24,766 nt of DNA from Candidatus Iainarchaeum sp. (GCA_043812975.1 JBDRLP010000060.1:1-24766); one strand, 5' to 3'. Positions 468 to 23,903 are shown, counted from the stretch's first letter. The notes: generated from the sequence alone by a model not told the origin. A program made the numbers and translations.

Positions 468-1241
468 ATGGATGAAAGAACCAAAACAGGTATTGAAGGT
501 CTTGATAAGGCTTTGAACGGCGGTGTGCCTAAAAGGAATATTGTTCTTGTTTCAGGCGGGGCAGGTACAGGTAAGTCTACTCTTGCTATGCAGTTTTTAG
601 TTAATGGTGCCAAGCTTTTTGGTGAAAAGGGTCTTTATATTTCTACTGAGCAGCAGAAGAAGGAATTGTATAGGGCTGCAGAATCTTATGGTTGGGATTT
701 AGAGTCTTTGGAAACTAATGGTTTGATTAAGATTGTTTATTTTGATGTTGTTGAAACTGATGGTTTCCTAGAGAAGTTGTATGAACTTTACACGACTTTC
801 ATGCCAAAAAGAGTTGTAATTGATTCACTAACAACTTTAACAGATTCTTTGTTAGTTTCTGGTATGGGTGAGAAGGAAGCCTTCTCAATGGTTCAGATTG
901 CTGAATCAGTTTCTCCAATCCCAAGAACCGAGAGAATTGTTTCCAAGACCCTGCTTTACCATTTAATGAAAAAACTCAGATTATTCGATTCAACGATTAT
1001 GTTGACTTCTGAATTGTTGGAAGGAGAAAAGGGACTCAGTGCAGATCAAATATCAGAATTCATCTGTGATGGGGTATTGATGTTGCATTATCTTGGTATT
1101 GCTGGTGCAGATTTGCGTACTATGCAAATTAGAAAAATGAGGTATACAGAGCATATCAAAAGTTATTTACCTTATACTATAGTTAAGAATAAAGGTTTAG
1201 ATGTGGATGCTGCCGAAGCTATGGATGTCCTAATGAAGTGA
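468..1241 (+). CDS. KaiC/RAD55-like RecA-superfamily ATPase (single domain)
   Basis: TGIEGLDKALNGGVP N-terminus, Walker A GGAGTGKST, Walker B RVVIDS, LTSE, ICDGVLML and RTMQIRKMR motifs. Confidence 0.92.
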   Translation: MDERTKTGIEGLDKALNGGVPKRNIVLVSGGAGTGKSTLAMQFLVNGAKLFGEKGLYISTEQQKKELYRAAESYGWDLESLETNGLIKIVYFDVVETDGFLEKLYELYTTFMPKRVVIDSLTTLTDSLLVSGMGEKEAFSMVQIAESVSPIPRTERIVSKTLLYHLMKKLRLFDSTIMLTSELLEGEKGLSADQISEFICDGVLMLHYLGIAGADLRTMQIRKMRYTEHIKSYLPYTIVKNKGLDVDAAEAMDVLMK

Positions 1242-1879
1242 TATCTATGTATAGTTTAATCTCAAAACTTTTAGTAACAGGAAAATTAAAATTTGAACCA
1301 GGTAAAATTACTGCTTTTAATGACCCATTTGCTTTAATTGATTTAGATTCTTTAAAAGCAATGACTGATGATGCTATTGTAGAAGGGGGTAACAGAATTT
1401 CAGATTTATATTTTTATGGGTGGGTATTTGGGTATAACACAACTAGAAATATGATTAGTTTGTTAAAACTTAAGAAATTTGAAGAACGTTATAAAATTTC
1501 AATGGACGTAATTGGTTTATTGGGTTTTGGAGATTATCAAACTATTAGCTTTCAACGCGCCAATCATGCAAAATTTAAAGTTATCGGGAATCCTTTTGCT
1601 TTATTATATCATCCTAGTAATTCATTGGTTTGTCATTATATTAGAGGTATGGAGGCAGGGGGTGGAACTCTAGTGCATGAATCTTTAATGGATAATATTG
1701 AAACTGAATGTGCTGCACAAAATGGAAATCACTGTGTTCACGCAAATTTAAATCAAGAAAAAATCGATGCGCTTGACAAAAAATTAGTATCTTCTCAGAT
1801 GAATCGAGAATATGTTAAAAAAAGGCAAAAAAAACTCATTGAAAGTCATGGCGATAATCCTTCTAGATTTGGGTTGTAG
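1238..1879 (+). CDS. V4R (4-vinyl reductase-like) ligand-binding domain protein
   Basis: GFGD motif plus CHYIRG...ETECAAQNGNHC cysteine pattern of V4R; GTGA overlap with the ATPase stop codon. Confidence 0.75.
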   Translation: MISMYSLISKLLVTGKLKFEPGKITAFNDPFALIDLDSLKAMTDDAIVEGGNRISDLYFYGWVFGYNTTRNMISLLKLKKFEERYKISMDVIGLLGFGDYQTISFQRANHAKFKVIGNPFALLYHPSNSLVCHYIRGMEAGGGTLVHESLMDNIETECAAQNGNHCVHANLNQEKIDALDKKLVSSQMNREYVKKRQKKLIESHGDNPSRFGL

Positions 1880-1907
1880 TAAAACGAATAATTGCTTGGT
1901 TTTACAT

Positions 1908-2810
1908 ATGGAAAAATTTTTTTCACAGGTTGCAAAGGAAAATTTTATTCTTAACTTACTGTTATTAGGGAGGCCATGGAACGGATTAATTATTGGGTTA
2001 TTTTCAATTATTGGTTTTTTATATTTTTCGCCTTTTAATCTAAATTTGATTTTGTCGTTATTTTTTGTTTTTTTTCTTCAATATTTTGGAGGCACTATAT
2101 TAAACGATTTAGCAGATTATTCTGCAGATAAAATTAATATGCCTTATAGGCCTTTGGAAAAAGGACTTGTAACTAAAAAGCAGGCTTTAATTTTAGCAAT
2201 TATTTCTTACTCAAGTAGTTTTTTGATTGCGTTTTTTACCTCGCAATATTTATTTGTTAGTTCTTTAGTTTTCTTCTTTTTTAGCATAATCTATTCAGTT
2301 AAACCTTTTAGATTAGTTAGTAGAGGTTTTTTTGGAAATTTTACTTTAGGTTTAGTTACTGTTTTTATCCCTTCTATTTCTGGAGCAATAATTGGATTGT
2401 CTAGTTTATTAGTTCCTGAGTGGTTTTTAATTTCATTTTTTGCATTTTCTCTTGTTTTTTCATTTTTGAGTATAGCTAAAGATTTTAAAGATATTAAAGG
2501 GGATCAAGAATCTAATAAATTAACTTTTACAATAAAACACGGGGTAAAAAAATCAATATTGGTGATGTTATTTGGAGCGTTAATTTTTTCTGTAATTTTT
2601 ATTTATTATAATCTTAAATTAGGAGTCTTTTTCATTTTTTCTTCATTTGTCTTTTTAGCTTTGGTTGTATATTTTAGTATAGGATTAATGAATGTTGGCA
2701 TTAATACAAATACTCAGAGATATGATGGGTTTTTCACAAATTTGAGAGTACTCATATTTTTTTATTCTTTAGTAATTTTAATTGTTTCATATCTTAAATT
2801 TATCCAATAA
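1908..2810 (+). CDS. UbiA-family prenyltransferase (DGGGP synthase/chlorophyll synthase-like motifs)
   Basis: NDLADYSADKINMPYRPL and KDFKDIKGD aspartate-rich motifs, multiple hydrophobic helices. Start moved to ATG 1908 to avoid a 68-bp overlap with the V4R gene. Confidence 0.88.
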   Translation: MEKFFSQVAKENFILNLLLLGRPWNGLIIGLFSIIGFLYFSPFNLNLILSLFFVFFLQYFGGTILNDLADYSADKINMPYRPLEKGLVTKKQALILAIISYSSSFLIAFFTSQYLFVSSLVFFFFSIIYSVKPFRLVSRGFFGNFTLGLVTVFIPSISGAIIGLSSLLVPEWFLISFFAFSLVFSFLSIAKDFKDIKGDQESNKLTFTIKHGVKKSILVMLFGALIFSVIFIYYNLKLGVFFIFSSFVFLALVVYFSIGLMNVGINTNTQRYDGFFTNLRVLIFFYSLVILIVSYLKFIQ

Positions 2811-2812
2811 GC

Positions 2813-3865
2813 GTGGTAATTATGGTAAAAATAAACTTTTCAAAATTGGAGCTTGGTTATGATGTAGTTGTGATTGGTGGCGGTGCTGCTGGTTGTTCAT
2901 TTCTTAGTAATATTTCCGATGAAAAATATAATGTTTTGTTAGTTGACTATCGCTCATTTCCTAGATTTAAAGCTTGTAGTGGGATTTTGGTTAATAACGC
3001 TAAAAAGTACTTTGATGGAATTAATATTCCTAGTTCAATTATGGCTAAACCAGTCGATTTACATTTAACTTATCAGGATTGGACTCATAATAAAGAGAAT
3101 AAAGTTGAGAAACATTTTGTAAATACTTATAGAAAAAAATTAGATGAATTGCTTTTTTCTGAAGTTAAAAAAAGAAATATTTCTATTTTGGAAGAAACAA
3201 AATTAATAGATTTTTTTTATACAAAAGATAAAAAGCACACTGTTGTTGTTTTAGAATCTAATGGGATGACCAAGTCAATCGTAACTAAGAATTTAATTGG
3301 TTGTGATGGGGCATTATCCCTTGTTAGAAAAAAAATATATCCAAGAAATATTCCTTATTATGTTGCAATGCAAGAAACAATCCCTGATCATAAAATTGAC
3401 CGGGCTTTTTTCATTTTTGATGAAGATATTACTGATTTTTATTGTTGGTTAATTCCTAAAGATGACGGAGTAGAAATAGGAGCTGCAGTTTCTCCATTTA
3501 AAGCAAGAGAAACATTCCAAAAATTTAAGAAAAAAGTAGCTGAAAAAACAGGAATAAAAGGAGACGGAAAAATAGAATCTGCAATAATATTGCGCCCTGA
3601 ATCATCTTCTGATTTTTTCTTAGGGGAAAATTCAGTTTTTCTTTGTGGAGAAGCAGCTGGTTTGATAAGTCCAAGTAGCGCTGAAGGGATAAGTTATGCT
3701 TTAATTAGCGGAAAATTATGTGCTGAAGCTTTAAACTCTGAAGAAAAAAATCCTATTGTAAGTTATAAGAAAAAATGTAAAACACTTCTTGATCGATTAA
3801 ATGAGAAACTCCTTAAATCTAAAAAAATTAGCCATTCTAAAAACAGAAAAACTCTTTTTTCATAA
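2813..3865 (+). CDS. FAD-dependent oxidoreductase, geranylgeranyl-reductase superfamily, CbrA(YidS)-like
   Basis: GGGAAG Rossmann motif, KACSG, GCDGALSLVR, YCWLIPK, GEAAGLISPSSAEGISYAL. ATG 2822 is an alternative start. Confidence 0.82.
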   Translation: MVIMVKINFSKLELGYDVVVIGGGAAGCSFLSNISDEKYNVLLVDYRSFPRFKACSGILVNNAKKYFDGINIPSSIMAKPVDLHLTYQDWTHNKENKVEKHFVNTYRKKLDELLFSEVKKRNISILEETKLIDFFYTKDKKHTVVVLESNGMTKSIVTKNLIGCDGALSLVRKKIYPRNIPYYVAMQETIPDHKIDRAFFIFDEDITDFYCWLIPKDDGVEIGAAVSPFKARETFQKFKKKVAEKTGIKGDGKIESAIILRPESSSDFFLGENSVFLCGEAAGLISPSSAEGISYALISGKLCAEALNSEEKNPIVSYKKKCKTLLDRLNEKLLKSKKISHSKNRKTLFS

Positions 3866-3906: not shown

Positions 3907-4779
3907 TCATTTTTTTACCTTATTAAATTGAATGATTTGTTTTCTTAAATATTCTTTTCTATATTCGTCTGCTAAACTGCTATTTTTAGTAACTATTGCA
4001 TCCATTTTTCCTTTGTATTCTCTCATTAAGTATAAATGTTTTCCTAAACCAAATTCCACAACTTTTTTTGGGAGCTTGTTTTGTATGCTCCAAAGTTTTC
4101 TGAAAGTTGGATCATAAATGAGTTCAGTTATGTAATCCCCTACTATTATTTTATCGCTTAATTTTGTGGAGCAACCAGTTATTCCAAATTTAATTTCTTT
4201 TGCTCCGTAGGATTTAAGAGTTTCTCCGAATAATTTGTCAACCTCATTATTTTCTTCAACTCTAATAAACCAATCATTTTGTTTAAAGACTTTTTTTAAT
4301 CCTGTTAAATGTTTTTCTTCTAATCCAACAACTGAATAACATAGTCTCCAAAGTGCTAAACTTGATTTATTTTCTGGATTTGGAGTATCCATTGCTTTAT
4401 CAATTAAAAACCATCCAAGATCAAGAATTCCATTAAAAGAAAGATTAATTGATTGTCCTTCTTTCATATTTTCAAGATCAATTTCTTTTTCTTTCTTGAA
4501 TTTTTCAGTAAAATGGTCCGCTTTTTTTCTAAATTGTTCTACCCAATTAGGATTTATAGAGTAACTGCTGTTAGTTTTTAACAAAACATCTTCTTCTAAC
4601 ATTTGCTTTAAAGTTTTATGCGTTGCTTGATAAGAATTAGTAATTCCAAAATGTCTTTGAAGCTGCGAATGTATCTGTTTAGCTGTAAGAGATTTTTCAT
4701 TTGAAAGTAATTCAATAATCTTTTGTTTAGTAGAAGCACTTTCTGGATTTAATTTTAAGAGTGAGAGTTCGTTGATTAT
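3907..4779 (-). CDS. wHTH regulator paralog 6 (290 aa, apparent ATA start)
   Basis: The frame stays open 59 codons upstream of the tracked ATG 4602: IINELSLLKLNPESASTKQKIIELLSNEKSLTAKQIHSQLQRHFGITNSYQATHKTLKQ, the family wHTH. ATA (4777-4779) overlaps the upstream TAA. Confidence 0.75.
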   Translation of the reverse strand: MINELSLLKLNPESASTKQKIIELLSNEKSLTAKQIHSQLQRHFGITNSYQATHKTLKQMLEEDVLLKTNSSYSINPNWVEQFRKKADHFTEKFKKEKEIDLENMKEGQSINLSFNGILDLGWFLIDKAMDTPNPENKSSLALWRLCYSVVGLEEKHLTGLKKVFKQNDWFIRVEENNEVDKLFGETLKSYGAKEIKFGITGCSTKLSDKIIVGDYITELIYDPTFRKLWSIQNKLPKKVVEFGLGKHLYLMREYKGKMDAIVTKNSSLADEYRKEYLRKQIIQFNKVKK

Positions 4780-5636
4780 TGCGCATCGACTCCGAAGTAT
4801 TTTTCTTTTAGCTGATTGAATATCATTGATGCTAGTTCTTGATTTTTCGTTATTGTTACTTCTATTTCTGCAGGGGTTTTCGAGATTTCTTGTTTTGCAT
4901 AATGCTTAAATAGATCTCCAAGGTCTTTTGTGTTGTTATAAACGTCATCCAGCATTTTTTTTGTTTTTTCTGAGTAATTAACTTCTACTATATAGTCGCC
5001 ATGTATTATGAAATCTTTTTTAAGATTCATTTTTTGTCCTGCCTTTATCCCTATAAAACCTGCTGCCTTGTATTGTTTTGCAATCCATCTGTCAAATGGT
5101 GAATCGCTTTCAAATATCCCGTATCCTCCAGAGTTGTTTTTCATCATGTTTATTAGTAAAGTAAAGTCCATAAATTTGAATTCCAATGGCCACCAAGCGT
5201 GTCTCAAGACCCCCATTCCTGTTGAAGGGTTTGTTTGAACTAGTTTTTTATCAGTAAAAAGCTGTGCAAGTTCCGTGCACATTTCACTGTAGTTATCAAA
5301 GAACCAAGTTTCTGTTCTATTTTCCTTTTCAGGAATTATATGGGTTTTTCCATTTTCTGAATATTTATCTTCAATGTTTTGTGCAATTTTTTTCAGGTTT
5401 TTTATCCAATTATGGCTTAGTTTGTATCCTTTTTCTTCTTTTGTTATTATTTCTTCTTGTGAAAGTTCCATTATAACCTTATGAATACCTTGATACGAGA
5501 TTTCTTTCCCAATTATTTTTTTATACCGGTTATAAATCTCTTTTCCACTCAAAGGCCATTCTTCAATGAGGAGTGAAATTACTCCATCCTTAGTTCCCTT
5601 GCTGTTGGCTGTTAACTGAACAAGTTCATTAATCAT
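4776..5636 (-). CDS. wHTH regulator paralog 5
   Basis: WPLSGKEIY...SYQGIHK wHTH; C-terminal RHAWWP, SPFDR, DFIIHGD, TKNQELA; ATGA overlap. Confidence 0.8.
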   Translation of the reverse strand: MINELVQLTANSKGTKDGVISLLIEEWPLSGKEIYNRYKKIIGKEISYQGIHKVIMELSQEEIITKEEKGYKLSHNWIKNLKKIAQNIEDKYSENGKTHIIPEKENRTETWFFDNYSEMCTELAQLFTDKKLVQTNPSTGMGVLRHAWWPLEFKFMDFTLLINMMKNNSGGYGIFESDSPFDRWIAKQYKAAGFIGIKAGQKMNLKKDFIIHGDYIVEVNYSEKTKKMLDDVYNNTKDLGDLFKHYAKQEISKTPAEIEVTITKNQELASMIFNQLKEKYFGVDAQ

Positions 5637-6463
5637 TTATGTTCCTCCATTTGTTTTTTGATGTTTTGTCTTGCTATTTCTGCTAGTTGTGGATTTTGAG
5701 TTATTTTCATTTCGATTTCTAAATCATTTGTATTATTTTTCATGTATTGTTTGAATAAGTCTGTTATGCTAAAGACATTTTGGTAAATTTTATCAAGTTT
5801 TTGTTTTGTTTCCTCAGAATATTTAACTTGAATAATTGTATGGCCTTGGACCATAATATCTTCATTCACATCAATATCTGCGCCAATAATTGCCTCTGAC
5901 CATTTCGCGATTCCATAATATTTTTTTATGAGTTTGTCGAAAGAAGAATTCCCTTGACAAATAACATGCGGTTTTGAAATAGCTCCAACACTTTTGCATA
6001 ATTCAAAATCCTTGAAACTGAATTTTAAAGGCCAGAAGAGATGCCTAGTCATAGCATAAACTTCAGTGTATTTTGGGCCGGCTAGTTTAGTGGAATTAAA
6101 CATATTTCCTAAAGCTAATGGAAAATCAGTATAATTATTGAATTTTAAAGTTTTTTCTTCATTAATAATTTGTTCATTTTCTTCATATGACAAATTAAGG
6201 CTATCAAAATAGTTTTTCGATTTTCCAATCCATTCTTTTGATAATTGGTATTTTTTATCAATTGATTGTATTGCTCCGTGGGATTCTAGTTCTTGGATGT
6301 TTTTGTGGGTTGCTTGATAAGTTGTGTTCAATCCTTGTTCTCTGATTAATGAGTTGTGTATTTCCTTTGCAGAAAGAGGCCACCTATTACCAAGAGTATG
6401 AATAATCAGTTCTTTTGTTGACTTAGTTTTGGGATCTAATGAAAGGAGTTCAATTTGGTTCAC
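5633..6463 (-). CDS. wHTH regulator paralog 4
   Basis: WPLSAKEIH...TYQATHK; RHLFWP, SSFDK, DIMVQG, TQNPQLA; GTGA overlap. Confidence 0.8.
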   Translation of the reverse strand: MNQIELLSLDPKTKSTKELIIHTLGNRWPLSAKEIHNSLIREQGLNTTYQATHKNIQELESHGAIQSIDKKYQLSKEWIGKSKNYFDSLNLSYEENEQIINEEKTLKFNNYTDFPLALGNMFNSTKLAGPKYTEVYAMTRHLFWPLKFSFKDFELCKSVGAISKPHVICQGNSSFDKLIKKYYGIAKWSEAIIGADIDVNEDIMVQGHTIIQVKYSEETKQKLDKIYQNVFSITDLFKQYMKNNTNDLEIEMKITQNPQLAEIARQNIKKQMEEHK

Positions 6464-7299
6464 TTTGTTTTCACCCTGAATTCTTTGAGCGTGTTTCTTC
6501 TTATTTCTTCGGCTATTTTTGGGTTGTGGATTACAAGGATTTTGTGTTTGAATTGTGTTTCGAATAGTGTGTTGAATATTTCTGAAATGTTCAGGTTTGT
6601 GAGACTTTTTGTCGCCTTGGAAAATTGGTCGTAAAGCTTTTTTCCCTTATAGTCAAAGTAGACATAAGCTATAAAATCGCCTTGAACAAGCGTGTCGGGC
6701 GTAAATGGTAGTTCTTTCCCGGTCTTTACTTTTGTTCCATGCTTTTCAAAGGCTTTTATGGCCATCTTGTCAAGGGGAGTGTTGGATGCAGCCAGAATGT
6801 ATGATTTTGTTGTTGTGAGGAATTCTTTTAAGCGCCTGAACTGGTTGTTTGACAGGGCTAATGTCGGCCATATGTGGTAAGTAAGGCTAGTATATGGGTC
6901 TTTATTTGGGTTTGGGAGAGTGCTGAATTCAAATAATACGAACTCCGCTATTTCAATGAATGTGTCAAACTCAAAGTACAATATTTTTTTCTCCCGCAGT
7001 TCCTCTGCATTTAAGGTTTTTGCTGTTTTTTCAATATTTTCCAGATGTTTTTTTGTATTCGCAATCCAGTTTATTTCAATGGTGTATTGGTGATTGTATT
7101 CTTTGAGTATTCCTGTTATTTGCATTTCTTTAAGCATTTTATGAACTGCTTGGTAAGATGAATTGTTAGCATACTGGCTTTTCAGTTCCGAATGAATCTG
7201 CTTGGCGCTGAGAGATTGCCTTTCGCCCAAAAGGCTGAGAATGTTGCTCTTGGTTGAGGTCTTGCCATTGCGTTTTTCCAACAGTAACTCGTTAATCAT
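6460..7299 (-). CDS. wHTH regulator paralog 3
   Basis: SLSAKQIH...SYQAVHK; YHIWP, TPLDK, DTLVQGD, HNPKIA. Start set at MINELL (7299) because of the ATGA overlap and upstream GGGAGG. Confidence 0.8.
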   Translation of the reverse strand: MINELLLEKRNGKTSTKSNILSLLGERQSLSAKQIHSELKSQYANNSSYQAVHKMLKEMQITGILKEYNHQYTIEINWIANTKKHLENIEKTAKTLNAEELREKKILYFEFDTFIEIAEFVLFEFSTLPNPNKDPYTSLTYHIWPTLALSNNQFRRLKEFLTTTKSYILAASNTPLDKMAIKAFEKHGTKVKTGKELPFTPDTLVQGDFIAYVYFDYKGKKLYDQFSKATKSLTNLNISEIFNTLFETQFKHKILVIHNPKIAEEIRRNTLKEFRVKTK

Positions 7300-8126
7300 T
7301 TCGCCGCCTCCCATGCTGTTTTGATTTCTTTTTTGAGGTGATTTGCAAGTTCACGGTCTTTGGTTATGATGATTTTTATTGTTCCTTTTTCTTCAAACAT
7401 TTGTTCAGGGTAGTTTTTTGTGAAAGCATCTATAGAATCTTTAACTTCGGTTGTAGCTTTTTTTACCATTGATTTTATTTTCTCTGGAAAATAAATCTGA
7501 TAAACTCTGTTGTCACTTACAACTATGTCGCAATTGCTCTCATAGTCAACTCCTAGTTTGACTTTATGTCCGATAGTTTTGTATGCCATAGAGGTAAACT
7601 TATCGACAAGCGTATTTCCTTTACATGCCATAATGCATTTTGTTTCTCCTGTTTTTTTGAACCAGTAATACTCATCTTTTTGCAAGGTAAAAATCCACCA
7701 CATATGATTATGAAATGAAACTGGATCTTTATAGGTTTTATTGTCAACTTCATCAGCAAATAACTCAAGCAATGTTCTTCCAAATTCGTGATAAGACTTG
7801 CAGTTTATAACTCTGATTTTCTTTTCCCCTTCGTTATTTTTTGTGATTCTTTCTTCAAGATCATCAAGCATTCTTTTGCTGTTTTTAACCCAATCTAGTT
7901 TTATAGAATATTTGTTGTCTATTTTGCCAACCATGCCTTCATTTTCAAGTTCAATAGTTGTCTTATGGATTGCTTGATAAGAAATATCGCTTGTAAATTC
8001 CTTGTGGATTTTGTTAAAAATTTCTTTAGCACTTAATGGCCATTCATTGCCAAGTATGTGCATAATCTGATCCTTTGTTGTTTTTGATTTAGTGCCTAAA
8101 CCTAAAGGGTTTATTGTGATATTCAT
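7296..8126 (-). CDS. wHTH regulator paralog 2
   Basis: WPLSAKEIF...SYQAIHK; HNHMWW, TLVDK, DIVVSD, TKDRELA; ATGA overlap. Confidence 0.8.
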   Translation of the reverse strand: MNITINPLGLGTKSKTTKDQIMHILGNEWPLSAKEIFNKIHKEFTSDISYQAIHKTTIELENEGMVGKIDNKYSIKLDWVKNSKRMLDDLEERITKNNEGEKKIRVINCKSYHEFGRTLLELFADEVDNKTYKDPVSFHNHMWWIFTLQKDEYYWFKKTGETKCIMACKGNTLVDKFTSMAYKTIGHKVKLGVDYESNCDIVVSDNRVYQIYFPEKIKSMVKKATTEVKDSIDAFTKNYPEQMFEEKGTIKIIITKDRELANHLKKEIKTAWEAAK

Positions 8127-8950
8127 TTTTTCACCTTTGATTCTTCATAAAGTTCTTTTGCTTCTTCAAGTAATGTGTCTGCAAGTTCTTTGTTTTTGAA
8201 GATTGTTACTTTTATTTCGCTTTTTCTTGTTCCAAATTCAAAGAGTTTCTGTATGTCAAAATCTTTTTCGCTTTTGGTTTCGGAATAAATGTTTTCCATT
8301 TCCTCTGAAAGTTCTTTTGGGAAGTACACCTGCATTATTTTGTTTCCTTCTGTGAAAGTGTCTATTTTTGCAGAGTAATCTTTTCCAACAACGATTTTTT
8401 TGCCAAGTTTTTCAACGTAATCCATTGTCATTTTATCAAGAAAAGTATCGCATGTGCATATGTTGTAATGGTTCCTGCTTGAGAAGAGCTTTTTCATTTT
8501 TTCATGCTCTTCCTGTGATGCTCCAGTCAAAGGATATGCGTGATGCCAGAAACATACGCATTCAACTGTTTTATCTGAAAAGTCCTCCGAGAAAAAATCA
8601 TTAATCAAAAATTTTCCCATTTCAATGTAAGAATTAAACTTGAGAAGAACCACGCCGTTCTGGGATTTTTCTTTCAGGTTGTTTTCCATGGTTTTGCTCA
8701 TGGAAGAAAGTTTTTTCACCCATGCAAAACTGACTTTGAACTTGTTGTTCTCTTTCTCAAGAACCTCTGTATCCTCAAGTTCCTTCAATGCCTTGAAAAT
8801 TGCCTGGTAGCTGCCAGAGAATGAGTGGTGTTTAACCATTTGGTTGTGAATTTCCTTTATGCTCAGCGGCCAGTTCTCTGAGAGAATTTGTATTATTTGG
8901 TTTTTAGTGCTTTTCTCGGCCAGTAAACCGAGACTGCTGGTCCCCGCCAT
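8123..8950 (-). CDS. wHTH regulator paralog 1 (first gene of the array)
   Basis: WPLSIKEIH...SYQAIFK; WHHAYP, TFLDK, DTFTEGN, FKNKELA. Confidence 0.8.
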   Translation of the reverse strand: MAGTSSLGLLAEKSTKNQIIQILSENWPLSIKEIHNQMVKHHSFSGSYQAIFKALKELEDTEVLEKENNKFKVSFAWVKKLSSMSKTMENNLKEKSQNGVVLLKFNSYIEMGKFLINDFFSEDFSDKTVECVCFWHHAYPLTGASQEEHEKMKKLFSSRNHYNICTCDTFLDKMTMDYVEKLGKKIVVGKDYSAKIDTFTEGNKIMQVYFPKELSEEMENIYSETKSEKDFDIQKLFEFGTRKSEIKVTIFKNKELADTLLEEAKELYEESKVKK

Positions 8951-8978: not shown

Positions 8979-9004
8979 TTATAAATCAACTTTTTGGTTG
9001 ATTT
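8979..9004. promoter_or_regulatory. Palindrome AAATCAAC-TTTTTG-GTTGATTT overlapping the minus-strand TATA box of the regulator array
   Basis: 8-bp inverted repeat at 8983-9004; minus-strand TTTATAA at 8979-8985, about 30 bp upstream of ATG 8950. Confidence 0.65.
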
Positions 9005-9074: not shown

Positions 9075-9299
9075 ATGACTGAGATAACTGTTATTACCAG
9101 AAAGTGGGGCAACAGCATCGGGGTTTCTTTTTCAAGCGATTTTGTGAAGGAGAAGAATATTGGCCCCAACCAGAAGCTGAGGATTGAGGTTAAGGATGAG
9201 GTGAAAAGACCGTTGCCCACGGTATTCGGTTCCCTCAGAGGATGGAAACTTGATGCTCAGAAACTCAAGAACAGGTTGAGAGAGGAAAGTGAGTGGTGA
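9075..9299 (+). CDS. vapB: AbrB/MazE-type antitoxin
   Basis: TRKWGNSIGV swapped-hairpin motif; 74 aa; directly precedes a PIN gene. Confidence 0.85.
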   Translation: MTEITVITRKWGNSIGVSFSSDFVKEKNIGPNQKLRIEVKDEVKRPLPTVFGSLRGWKLDAQKLKNRLREESEW

Positions 9300-9659
9300 A
9301 TGTATTTTTTCGACACTTACGCACTTATTGAACTCGTGAAGGGCAATCCAGTCTATGCAGATTACGCGGGCAAACCCATTTACACAAGCATCTTCAATTT
9401 GTACGAGTTCTTTTACTCTGTTTTGGCGGAGTTCGGCGAGAAAAAGGCTAGGAAGGAAACACAGAGCCTCAATGCCAATATTATTTCTTTGAATCTGAAG
9501 GACATTGCACAGGCTTCAAAATTCAGGTTTGAAAACAGGAAGAAAAAGCTTTCTTATGCTGGTGCACTAGGCTATGTACTGGCAAAAAGCAGGGATTTGG
9601 TATTTTTGACAGGCGACATGCAGTTCGAGAAAATGAAGAATGTGGAATACGTGAAATAA
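9300..9659 (+). CDS. vapC: PIN-domain toxin, one conserved Asp replaced by Gly
   Basis: FFDTYALIE, NLYE, LSYAGALGY (normally LSYADxxGY), LTGDMQF. Confidence 0.85.
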   Translation: MYFFDTYALIELVKGNPVYADYAGKPIYTSIFNLYEFFYSVLAEFGEKKARKETQSLNANIISLNLKDIAQASKFRFENRKKKLSYAGALGYVLAKSRDLVFLTGDMQFEKMKNVEYVK

Positions 9660-9699: not shown

Positions 9700-10056
9700 T
9701 TACGGCCTTTTTTTGCCTTTGAACCTTTTATCGTATTTTTTGTGTGTTTCTATTATAAGGATAAAACAAAATATTTCTATTTCGTGCCTTCTGATTGTGT
9801 AGAGCATCCTCCAGAATTTGGCCAGCCTGATTTTGAACAGGTTGTCCACATCCATGTCTTTAGGAATGTCCTTTTTCTTAACCACTTCTCCGTAAAGTGG
9901 GTCCTGTTTGAGTAGTTCCAGTTTTTCGTCTATTGATTTTAGGAGTGTCTGATTTTCAGAGCCCTTTATGCCTTTTGCTTTTTCCACTTTAACTATTTCT
10001 TTCAATTTTTCGTATTCTTCTCTGGCCTGGTCAATTAGCCTTATTCTTGCTTTCAC
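9700..10056 (-). CDS. RelE/HigB-like toxin (putative)
   Basis: Basic 118 aa; LKQDPLYGE...NLFKIRLAKFWRMLYTI...THKKYDK resembles the RelE fold; GTGA overlap with the upstream partner. Confidence 0.6.
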   Translation of the reverse strand: MKARIRLIDQAREEYEKLKEIVKVEKAKGIKGSENQTLLKSIDEKLELLKQDPLYGEVVKKKDIPKDMDVDNLFKIRLAKFWRMLYTIRRHEIEIFCFILIIETHKKYDKRFKGKKRP

Positions 10057-10322
10057 GCCTCGACACTTTCCTCTAAAAGTTTTCTCATTTTCTGAGGGGG
10101 CGTATACGTCCAGATTATTCCTTTTTTGGAGTCCAAAACCATTCCTCTTTGCCCCATGTATTCTATTATAATGTTGAGCGTGGGACGCATTATTTTGTTG
10201 TCCGACCTTTTGATTATTTCATATCTGCTTAAAGGCTCTCTGGCCTTTTTGAGTATTCCCTCAATCATGAGAACTGTTTTAAGTGTTGGATAATGCATAA
10301 CCTGATTTGTTCTTGAAACCAC
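10053..10322 (-). CDS. Small winged-helix protein, probable antitoxin or regulator
   Basis: YPTLKTVLMIEGILKKAREPLSRYEII...TLNIIIEYM..RGMV wHTH-like pattern; GGTGA upstream of GTG; coupled to the RelE-like gene. Confidence 0.6.
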   Translation of the reverse strand: MVSRTNQVMHYPTLKTVLMIEGILKKAREPLSRYEIIKRSDNKIMRPTLNIIIEYMGQRGMVLDSKKGIIWTYTPPQKMRKLLEESVEA

Positions 10323-22829: not shown

Positions 22830-22879
22830 CGAGTACTTATATACCTGCGGTTGATTGGGAATCAACTAAATGGTTGATT
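22830..22879 (-). promoter_or_regulatory. 50-bp promoter/operator cassette, copy A
   Basis: On +: CGAGTA..ATATACCTGCGGTTGATT-GGG-AATCAAC-TAAATG-GTTGATT; 44/50 identical to 23854-23903; contains minus-strand TATATAAG. Confidence 0.8.
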
Positions 22880-23853: not shown

Positions 23854-23903
23854 CGAGTATTAATATACCTGCGGTTGATTAACAATCAACCAAATGGTTG
23901 ATT
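23854..23903 (-). promoter_or_regulatory. 50-bp promoter/operator cassette, copy B
   Basis: Contains perfect AATCAACC-AAAT-GGTTGATT and minus-strand TATATTAA; 44/50 identical to copy A. Confidence 0.8.

Follow-up and report, generated by a model that had tools for sequence, protein, structure and literature searches.

The 24,766-nt stretch of DNA analysed here, referred to below as the window, belongs to Candidatus Iainarchaeum sp. (GCA_043812975.1 JBDRLP010000060.1:1-24766), a DPANN archaeon, and carries on its minus strand an array of six translationally coupled paralogous genes. We suggest that the six genes form one operon of old, individually conserved paralogs of an unnamed regulator family of DPANN archaea, each of which would combine a DNA-binding head of the winged-helix type with a dimerisation helix and a single, non-catalytic domain of PLD fold. 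The six paralogs have the same DNA-reading helix, and their most likely target is the palindrome ATCAACC-N4-GGTTGAT, which they would bind as dimers or as higher oligomers. This palindrome adjoins the TATA box of the array promoter, which suggests autoregulation, and together with a third half-site it would form the promoter cassette of an operon for a giant secreted protease, of small helix-turn-helix (HTH) genes and of a few other genes. The diverged C-terminal domains (C-domains) may give each paralog its own input or partner, with KaiC-like ATPase and V4R genes as candidate signal sources. Taken as a whole, this reading, in which ancient paralogs built like TrmBL2 share one helix, regulate themselves and the cassette targets and differ in their C-domain inputs, seems to us somewhat better than an even chance.

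Gene regulation is hardly known in DPANN archaea, whose genomes are very small. The present analysis defines a large family of regulators that lack annotation, with its likely operator, as well as a conserved promoter cassette and, as a candidate, a small regulon with giant secreted proteins among its members. The family is, moreover, a natural case of one invariant DNA-reading head combined with many sensor-type domains (PLD-fold, doubled PLD-fold and NACHT-HEAT). Literature searches on TrmB in combination with DPANN, on KaiC-like proteins, on TrmBL2 and on tandem TrmB-like archaeal paralogs returned no report of such arrays or of this family.

The six-gene array and its family

Open reading frame (ORF) calls bear out the preliminary description of this DNA as carrying six co-directional minus-strand paralogs of 275-290 aa at 8950-3907 (Table 1). 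The 4-nt overlap of start and stop that it reported for every junction is likewise present at all five, as ATGA at 8126-8123, 7299-7296 and 5636-5633, GTGA at 6463-6460 and ATAA at 4779-4776, and genes 2-5 have GGTGA or GGAGG 6-10 nt before their starts. The paralogs are 25-30% identical to the first of them, and the mean pairwise identity of the six is highest for the winged helix (0.39), lower for the C-domain (0.22) and lowest for the linker helix (0.18). All motifs listed earlier were found in the alignment of the six sequences. Those of the head are L(S/T)xK(E/Q)I, with invariant K32 and I34, and (S/T)YQ(A/G)x(H/F)K, with invariant Y48, Q49 and K53 (SYQAIFK in paralog 1); those of the C-domain are H-x-W/F-W, DK or DR with invariant D172, D197-xxVxG(D/N), and (N/D)xxLA with invariant A257.

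Gene 6 has ATA at the position of its expected start codon, a point missed by the earlier description. The next in-frame ATG, GTG or TTG is at 4602, and a start there would delete the winged helix. The frame stays open from 4905 onwards, and from 4779 it encodes the conserved N-terminal motifs in intact form, in an uninterrupted run of 290 codons. The homologous junction in a genome of the same genus (G003) reads ATGA instead of ATAA; a single G-to-A change at 4777 therefore destroyed the ATG and preserved the stop codon of the upstream gene, TGA becoming TAA. The ATA could mean that translation reinitiates at AUA, that the start was lost recently or that the sequence is wrong here. Contigs from three public DNA runs, in which the lineage has small shares, leave 4752-4920 uncovered, the ATA included. 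We also observed that paralog 6 and G003a_p3, a member of another orthogroup, have the same 22 N-terminal residues (window 4714-4779 against L007 1901-1966). At the DNA level the two genes are ~88% identical over the first 70 nt and divergent afterwards, a pattern that suggests gene conversion or unequal crossing-over of their 5' ends. Paralogs 3 and 5 likewise start with MINEL.

Searched against 1.84 billion representatives, a profile built from the six matches 2073 clusters at E<=0.001, 486 of them at E<=1e-30, and the likeness of the six is therefore not due to chance. Our survey shows the family in 48 of 61 related genomes and, in a sample of 201 genomes from the phylum, in 127. Its Atlas clusters are mostly labelled Nanobdellota, and a protein of one relative is labelled Candidatus Diapherotrites archaeon at NCBI. 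The genome studied here (G000) has six copies only, namely the array. In most cases the family genes stand in tight arrays. Co-directional arrays were found at 22 loci; with gene starts placed by the nearest-start rule, 33 of the 54 junctions in them are overlaps of -4, and 46 fall in the range from -8 to +2.

In a quick IQ-TREE phylogeny of 76 full-length members, from which partial genes were excluded, each of the six window paralogs groups with orthologs in other genomes (Table 1). Two deep clades of 28 and 48 rows (SH-aLRT = 99 for both) divide the tree, one with paralogs 4 and 5 and the other with paralogs 1, 2, 3 and 6. All eight rows of the paralog 1 clade (SH-aLRT = 99) stand at array position 1. 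Five of the six rows of the paralog 6 clade (SH-aLRT = 100) are last in their arrays, and the remaining one, G007b_p2, is followed by one further family gene. Recent lineage-specific duplication was considered and ruled out, as the tree shows old orthogroups. The dN/dS ratio is 0.08-0.14 in both domains for two orthologous pairs, with dS near saturation in one of them.

Fold and relation to TrmB-type and PLD proteins

An AlphaFold (AF2) model of paralog 2, built from a 140-row family alignment (pLDDT = 90.6, pTM = 0.75), is composed of a winged helix at residues 17-75 (three helices at 17-62 and a beta wing at 66-75), a long helix at 77-98 and an alpha/beta domain at 104-274. The model has the domain order of TrmB and TrmBL2, in which a winged helix and a long dimerisation helix precede a C-terminal PLD-fold domain. 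When the whole length was compared with Foldseek, the top eight matches were TrmBL2 chains (E 2e-9 to 3e-7), with TrmB next (E 7e-5, and a further TrmB/TrmBL1 match at 4e-3) and PLD-fold proteins after them. By VIA-align, the head resembles Zur, MecI, BlaI and Fur (Z ~10-11) and the C-domain resembles Nuc (1byr; Z = 10.8 over 134 residues, root-mean-square deviation 3.0). A structure search of the ESM Atlas also led to TrmB-type clusters; its feature match to FilR1_middle scored 0.86, below the bar of 0.9. As far as the model goes, two earlier proposals are supported, namely that the N-termini are winged helices and that the C-terminal end is of the TrmB type, here the PLD-fold domain of TrmB and TrmBL2. 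Pfam and NCBIfam scans of the six proteins gave sub-threshold matches only, none at cut-off, and searches of PDB sequences and profiles gave nothing significant, the best E value of the profile search being no lower than 0.6.

TrmBL2 of Pyrococcus furiosus and Thermococcus kodakarensis (TK0471; PDB 5bpd, 5bpi, 5box, 5bqt), the best whole-length match, is of similar length (~260-290 aa) and has the same winged helix, dimerisation helix and single PLD-fold C-domain. According to the part of the literature consulted on these proteins (PMC4877046), TrmB and TrmBL1 each have a further C-terminal sugar-binding subdomain, and TrmBL2 is without it, is tetrameric and binds DNA non-specifically. TrmBL2 is also described there as a single, highly conserved and abundant gene, whereas the window family consists of tandem copies that have diverged and keep the helix motif invariant, accompanied by a specific palindrome that matches, and no sequence or profile similarity between the two is detectable. 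TrmB and TrmBL1 of Thermococcales (PDB 3qph, 2f5t) have the winged helix, the helix and the PLD-fold subdomain in common with the window proteins. They are presented in the same part of that source as dimeric regulators of palindromic sites near BRE/TATA, TrmBL1 being an activator as well as a repressor. The sugar-binding subdomain is theirs only, in contrast to the window proteins, which PF01978 and PF11495 do not match. All six of the latter end after the PLD-fold domain at 275-290 aa, without this extra subdomain, and the earlier proposal that the C-domains read different ligands finds no support here. The family is genuine and conserved, an unannotated form of the TrmB/TrmBL2 kind with the TrmBL2-type architecture.

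PLD-fold domains of known proteins act in pairs, and single-domain PLD nucleases work as dimers of PLD domains. Three of these nucleases, Nuc (1byr), NucT (6ehi) and Zucchini (4ggk), are similar to the C-domain in fold (Z 9.9-10.8 over 129-134 residues) and differ by a conserved HxK(x)4D motif that is absent from the window family. A catalytic PLD nuclease was ruled out: the motif HxK(x)4D(x)6G(S/T)xN is not conserved, and no conserved His stands two residues before the Lys of K-x-G. The residues that are conserved in the C-domain (H, W, D, K-x-G and D-xxVxGD) are placed elsewhere than the PLD catalytic motif. The C-domain is probably non-catalytic, and H, W, D172, K-x-G189 and D197 could line a pocket.

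The palindrome, the promoter cassette and their possible readers

Family members hardly vary at the start of their recognition helix, (S/T)-Y-Q-(A/G/S)-x-H-K. Among 140 diverse members Y50 is invariant and Q51, A52, H54 and K55 are each conserved in at least 90%; among the array proteins YQ is found in 72 of 76 and HK in 71 of 76. Upstream of gene 1 lies the sequence AAATCAACCAAAAAGTTGATT, with a palindrome (Table 1) as the candidate shared operator, directly adjoining a TATA-like TTTATAA ~35 nt before the ATG. The palindrome recurs, with no more than one mismatch, in 11 of the 25 upstream regions of family genes or gene groups. Perfect ATCAAC-N6-GTTGAT is found at five sites in G000, three of them in the window, compared with a mean of 0.05 in 20 shuffles, and 79 such sites are present in 32 of the 61 relatives, compared with 15 for a reversed control pattern. 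The spacer is mostly C/T-AAA-A/T-G/A, and the real site is therefore read as ATCAACC-N4-GGTTGAT. Its half-site centres are 11 bp apart, a spacing that suits a dimeric winged-helix protein. The near-invariance of the helix, together with a conserved palindrome on array promoters, fits the single shared DNA site put forward in the preliminary description and, at the level of sequence, lends that idea good indirect support.

The other four sites of G000 share a longer element, in which the palindrome is followed by 5 nt, by a third half-site ATCAACC and then by GCAGGTATAT(A/T)A(A/G)TACTC; the TATA box of this composite cassette occupies the place of a would-be fourth half-site. Many further copies are found in relatives across the order. 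Among the first ORFs that they face are ones whose N-termini look signal-like by eye, small HTH genes, several enzymes and head-only members of the family; of the 31 cassette-facing ORFs called, four are family genes with the N-domain only. The small HTH gene has one or two matches per genome in 28 of the 61 relatives, and 15 of the listed places (in 15 genomes) are within ~260 bp of a listed palindrome. One relative (G007) encodes on its contig C43 a 703-aa protein (L052 331-2442, minus strand) in which a family head (VSYQAVHK) is fused to both a NACHT NTPase and HEAT repeats; a palindrome is situated between this gene and a divergent head-only family gene.

Behind the window cassette at 22861, the minus-strand run 22811-10393 encodes first an S8 subtilase of 1858 aa and then a 171-aa protein, an RDD protein and a 1912-aa Big_9/dockerin protein, and may be one long operon. 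At the opposite end of the window, 1-126 comprise the final 42 codons of a protein with a PEP-utiliser domain; they match exactly the end of the last gene of contig C41 (L049, G000 C41:46752-48149). Because of this identical protein C-terminus, C41 and the window contig probably abut, which would bring four of the five palindromes of G000 into one island of ~27 kb.

The probability that the array family itself reads the palindrome is, in our estimate, a little over one half. The family is favoured because its invariant head matches an invariant half-site and because the motif accompanies head-only and head-NACHT-HEAT genes. Several observations weigh against this assignment or against the wider interpretation of the array. 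The motif is missing from 14 of the 25 family upstream regions, several regions having half-sites, and helix and motif are both invariant, so that there is no covariation to exploit. TrmBL2 is without a known effector and binds DNA non-specifically in the part of the source cited (PMC4877046). PF01978 has no match to any of the six proteins (E<=1) and PF11495 none in the window, and of the 17 other places in the genome that PF01978 does match, none of which lies in the array, four are canonical TrmB-like genes of 220-259 aa. Comparison by hhalign of the 140-row family alignment with these four proteins gave a probability of 2.2% over 18 columns, the four-row profile being shallow; no link of the six to the TrmB family is detectable at this level, and the six may be distant homologues. 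Gene 6 may be untranslated, given the ATA at its start position. The linkage of KaiC-like genes to the arrays, described below, may in part reflect shared ancestry, as the compared genomes are kin and G000 has eight KaiC-like genes. Finally, perfect palindromes occur without any family match in G004, G011, G012, G015 and G027 (76-90% complete), and four of these five genomes have the small HTH gene.

This last distribution bears on an alternative that we regard as unlikely but deserving of weight, in which the palindrome is read by another factor, either the 97-aa small HTH protein (23752-23459), encoded in single copy, or the PF01978 TrmB-type protein of contig C36, and the array is one target, its conserved head doing something else. 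In most cases the promoter of the small HTH gene itself contains the cassette, and the C36 gene carries it likewise. However, the presumed recognition helix (helix 3) of the small HTH protein varies widely among genomes with an identical half-site, whereas the head of the array family is invariant. The motif is also found with family genes that have other C-terminal parts, the cassette standing before four head-only genes and a palindrome between a head-only gene and the divergent head-NACHT-HEAT gene, and the five genomes that have the palindrome and no family match are incomplete.

As to the form in which the array family would act, the preliminary description raised a stoichiometric hetero-oligomer. 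An obligate complex of all six proteins, supplied in equal doses through translational coupling, would agree with the 4-nt overlap at every junction and with the conserved order of the first and last members. It would also agree with natural head-C-C fusions, one of which joins different orthogroups, and with the general knowledge that PLD-fold domains act as pairs. Array composition argues otherwise: the arrays range from two to eight genes, many genomes have a single family copy, and the sets of paralogs differ even within the genus. For instance, in G003 the ortholog of paralog 1 is directly followed by that of paralog 3, with no paralog 2 ortholog between them, and then by an orthogroup missing from the window, and in G005, a genome of this genus too, the array within the same flanks has only two genes. 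We therefore consider a fixed hetero-oligomer improbable. Equally improbable are TrmBL2-like chromatin proteins that coat DNA non-specifically, with the paralogs as redundant isoforms: TrmBL2 is the best structural match and, in the part of its description cited above, lacks the sugar-binding subdomain as the window proteins do, but a specific conserved palindrome accompanies the genes, and the paralogs are old, separately conserved and not redundant.

Domain pairing and neighbouring genes

The genes and their couplings, the fold, the orthologs and their order, the invariant helix and the motif with its location are observed here; that the array proteins and not another factor read the palindrome, that they dimerise and that their C-domains take different signals is inferred. 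Eight of the 12 long family members examined are of the form head-C-C or head-C-C-C (Table 1). In G007 the second C-domain duplicates the position-1 type; in P0008 a different orthogroup is its source. Since C-domains adjoin in these single chains, as in known PLD proteins, pairing of C-domains between separate paralogs seems plausible. Complex prediction for paralogs 1 and 2, with alignments as input, gave a score of 0.01 against a mark of 0.32, which speaks neither for nor against such pairing.

Two genes near the start of the window, for a single-domain KaiC-like ATPase and a V4R-type protein, recur near arrays of the family, their order and orientation varying between genomes. The window copy of the latter matches PF02830 at E 0.052; nine of 11 orthologs match this family, the best at E 5e-15, and E155, C158 and C166 are invariant. 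As G000 has eight full-length KaiC-like genes, the proximity of one of them by chance would be about one in ten per locus. Makarova and co-workers reportedly described KaiC-like ATPases, in 2017, as archaeal signalling hubs. In a more far-reaching version of the favoured reading, the array would be a combinatorial switchboard: paralogs with the same head would pair with themselves or with each other through their PLD-fold domains, take KaiC-like and V4R inputs, and control the giant protease and surface-protein operon through the cassette with three half-sites. We hold this version to be rather doubtful; if true, the operon under its control would be one that a host-dependent DPANN cell would use at its surface.

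Table 1. Positions of the array genes, their orthologs, the DNA elements and associated genes (window coordinates unless a genome, contig or locus is named)
Feature	Position	Strand	Remarks
Paralog 1	8950-8123	-	275 aa, ATG start; ORF call
Paralog 2	8126-7296	-	276 aa, ATG start; the paralog modelled by AlphaFold
Paralog 3	7299-6460	-	279 aa, ATG start; longer alternative ATG at 7314
Paralog 4	6463-5633	-	276 aa, GTG start; deep clade A
Paralog 5	5636-4776	-	286 aa, ATG start; deep clade A
Paralog 6	4779-3907	-	290 codons; ATA at start position
Ortholog of paralog 1	G003a_p1		72% identity
Ortholog of paralog 2	G007a_p2		63% identity
Ortholog of paralog 3	G003a_p2		83% identity; dN/dS ~0.09
Orthologs of paralog 4	G008_p1, G007a_p3		~61% identity
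Ortholog of paralog 5	G007a_p4		52% identity
Palindrome, candidate shared operator	8985..9002	read on minus strand	ATCAACC-AAAA-AGTTGAT; upstream of gene 1
Composite cassette	22831..22878	-	palindrome, 5 nt, ATCAACC, then GCAGGTATATAAGTACTC; faces S8 subtilase operon (start 22811)
Composite cassette	23855..23902	-	palindrome, 5 nt, ATCAACC, then GCAGGTATATWARTACTC; faces 97-aa small HTH gene (23752-23459)
Composite cassette	G000 C36:12885		faces 169-aa PF01978 gene on contig C36
Composite cassette	G000 C41:45471		faces pair of U32-peptidase-like and PEP-utiliser genes on contig C41
One head with two or three tandem PLD-fold C-domains	P0008, P0011, P0012, P0013, P0025, P0037, P0038, P0041; L030 5760-7136		369-644 aa
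Single-domain KaiC-like ATPase	468..1241	+	PF06745 E 2.5e-51; near arrays in 12 of 19 genomes (20 loci)
V4R-type protein	1238..1879	+	213 aa; 4-nt overlap with KaiC-like gene; near arrays in 10 of 19 genomes

Several other features of the window were noted. An inverted repeat, TAGCGTTT-N8-AAACGCTA, followed by a T run and TTTTATAT, lies at 404-442, ~25 nt before the KaiC-like gene, and could serve either as an operator or as a terminator for the gene upstream of it. Neither Rfam nor tRNA scans gave a match in the window, and a promoter and terminator scan of the sigma-70 style found 24 promoter-like sites where 18.8 were expected, a bacterial model that is uninformative for an archaeon. Genes for a UbiA-family prenyltransferase and a geranylgeranyl-reductase-family flavoprotein occupy 1812-3865, between the KaiC/V4R pair and the array, and are found near arrays in four and five of 19 genomes, respectively. 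Divergent from the array, a short gene and a PIN-domain gene (PF01850 E 9e-6) at 9075-9659 are toxin-antitoxin-like. Another toxin-antitoxin-like pair, of 89 and 118 aa and with a weak ParE-like match, occupies 9700-10322 and is kept near arrays in four genomes.

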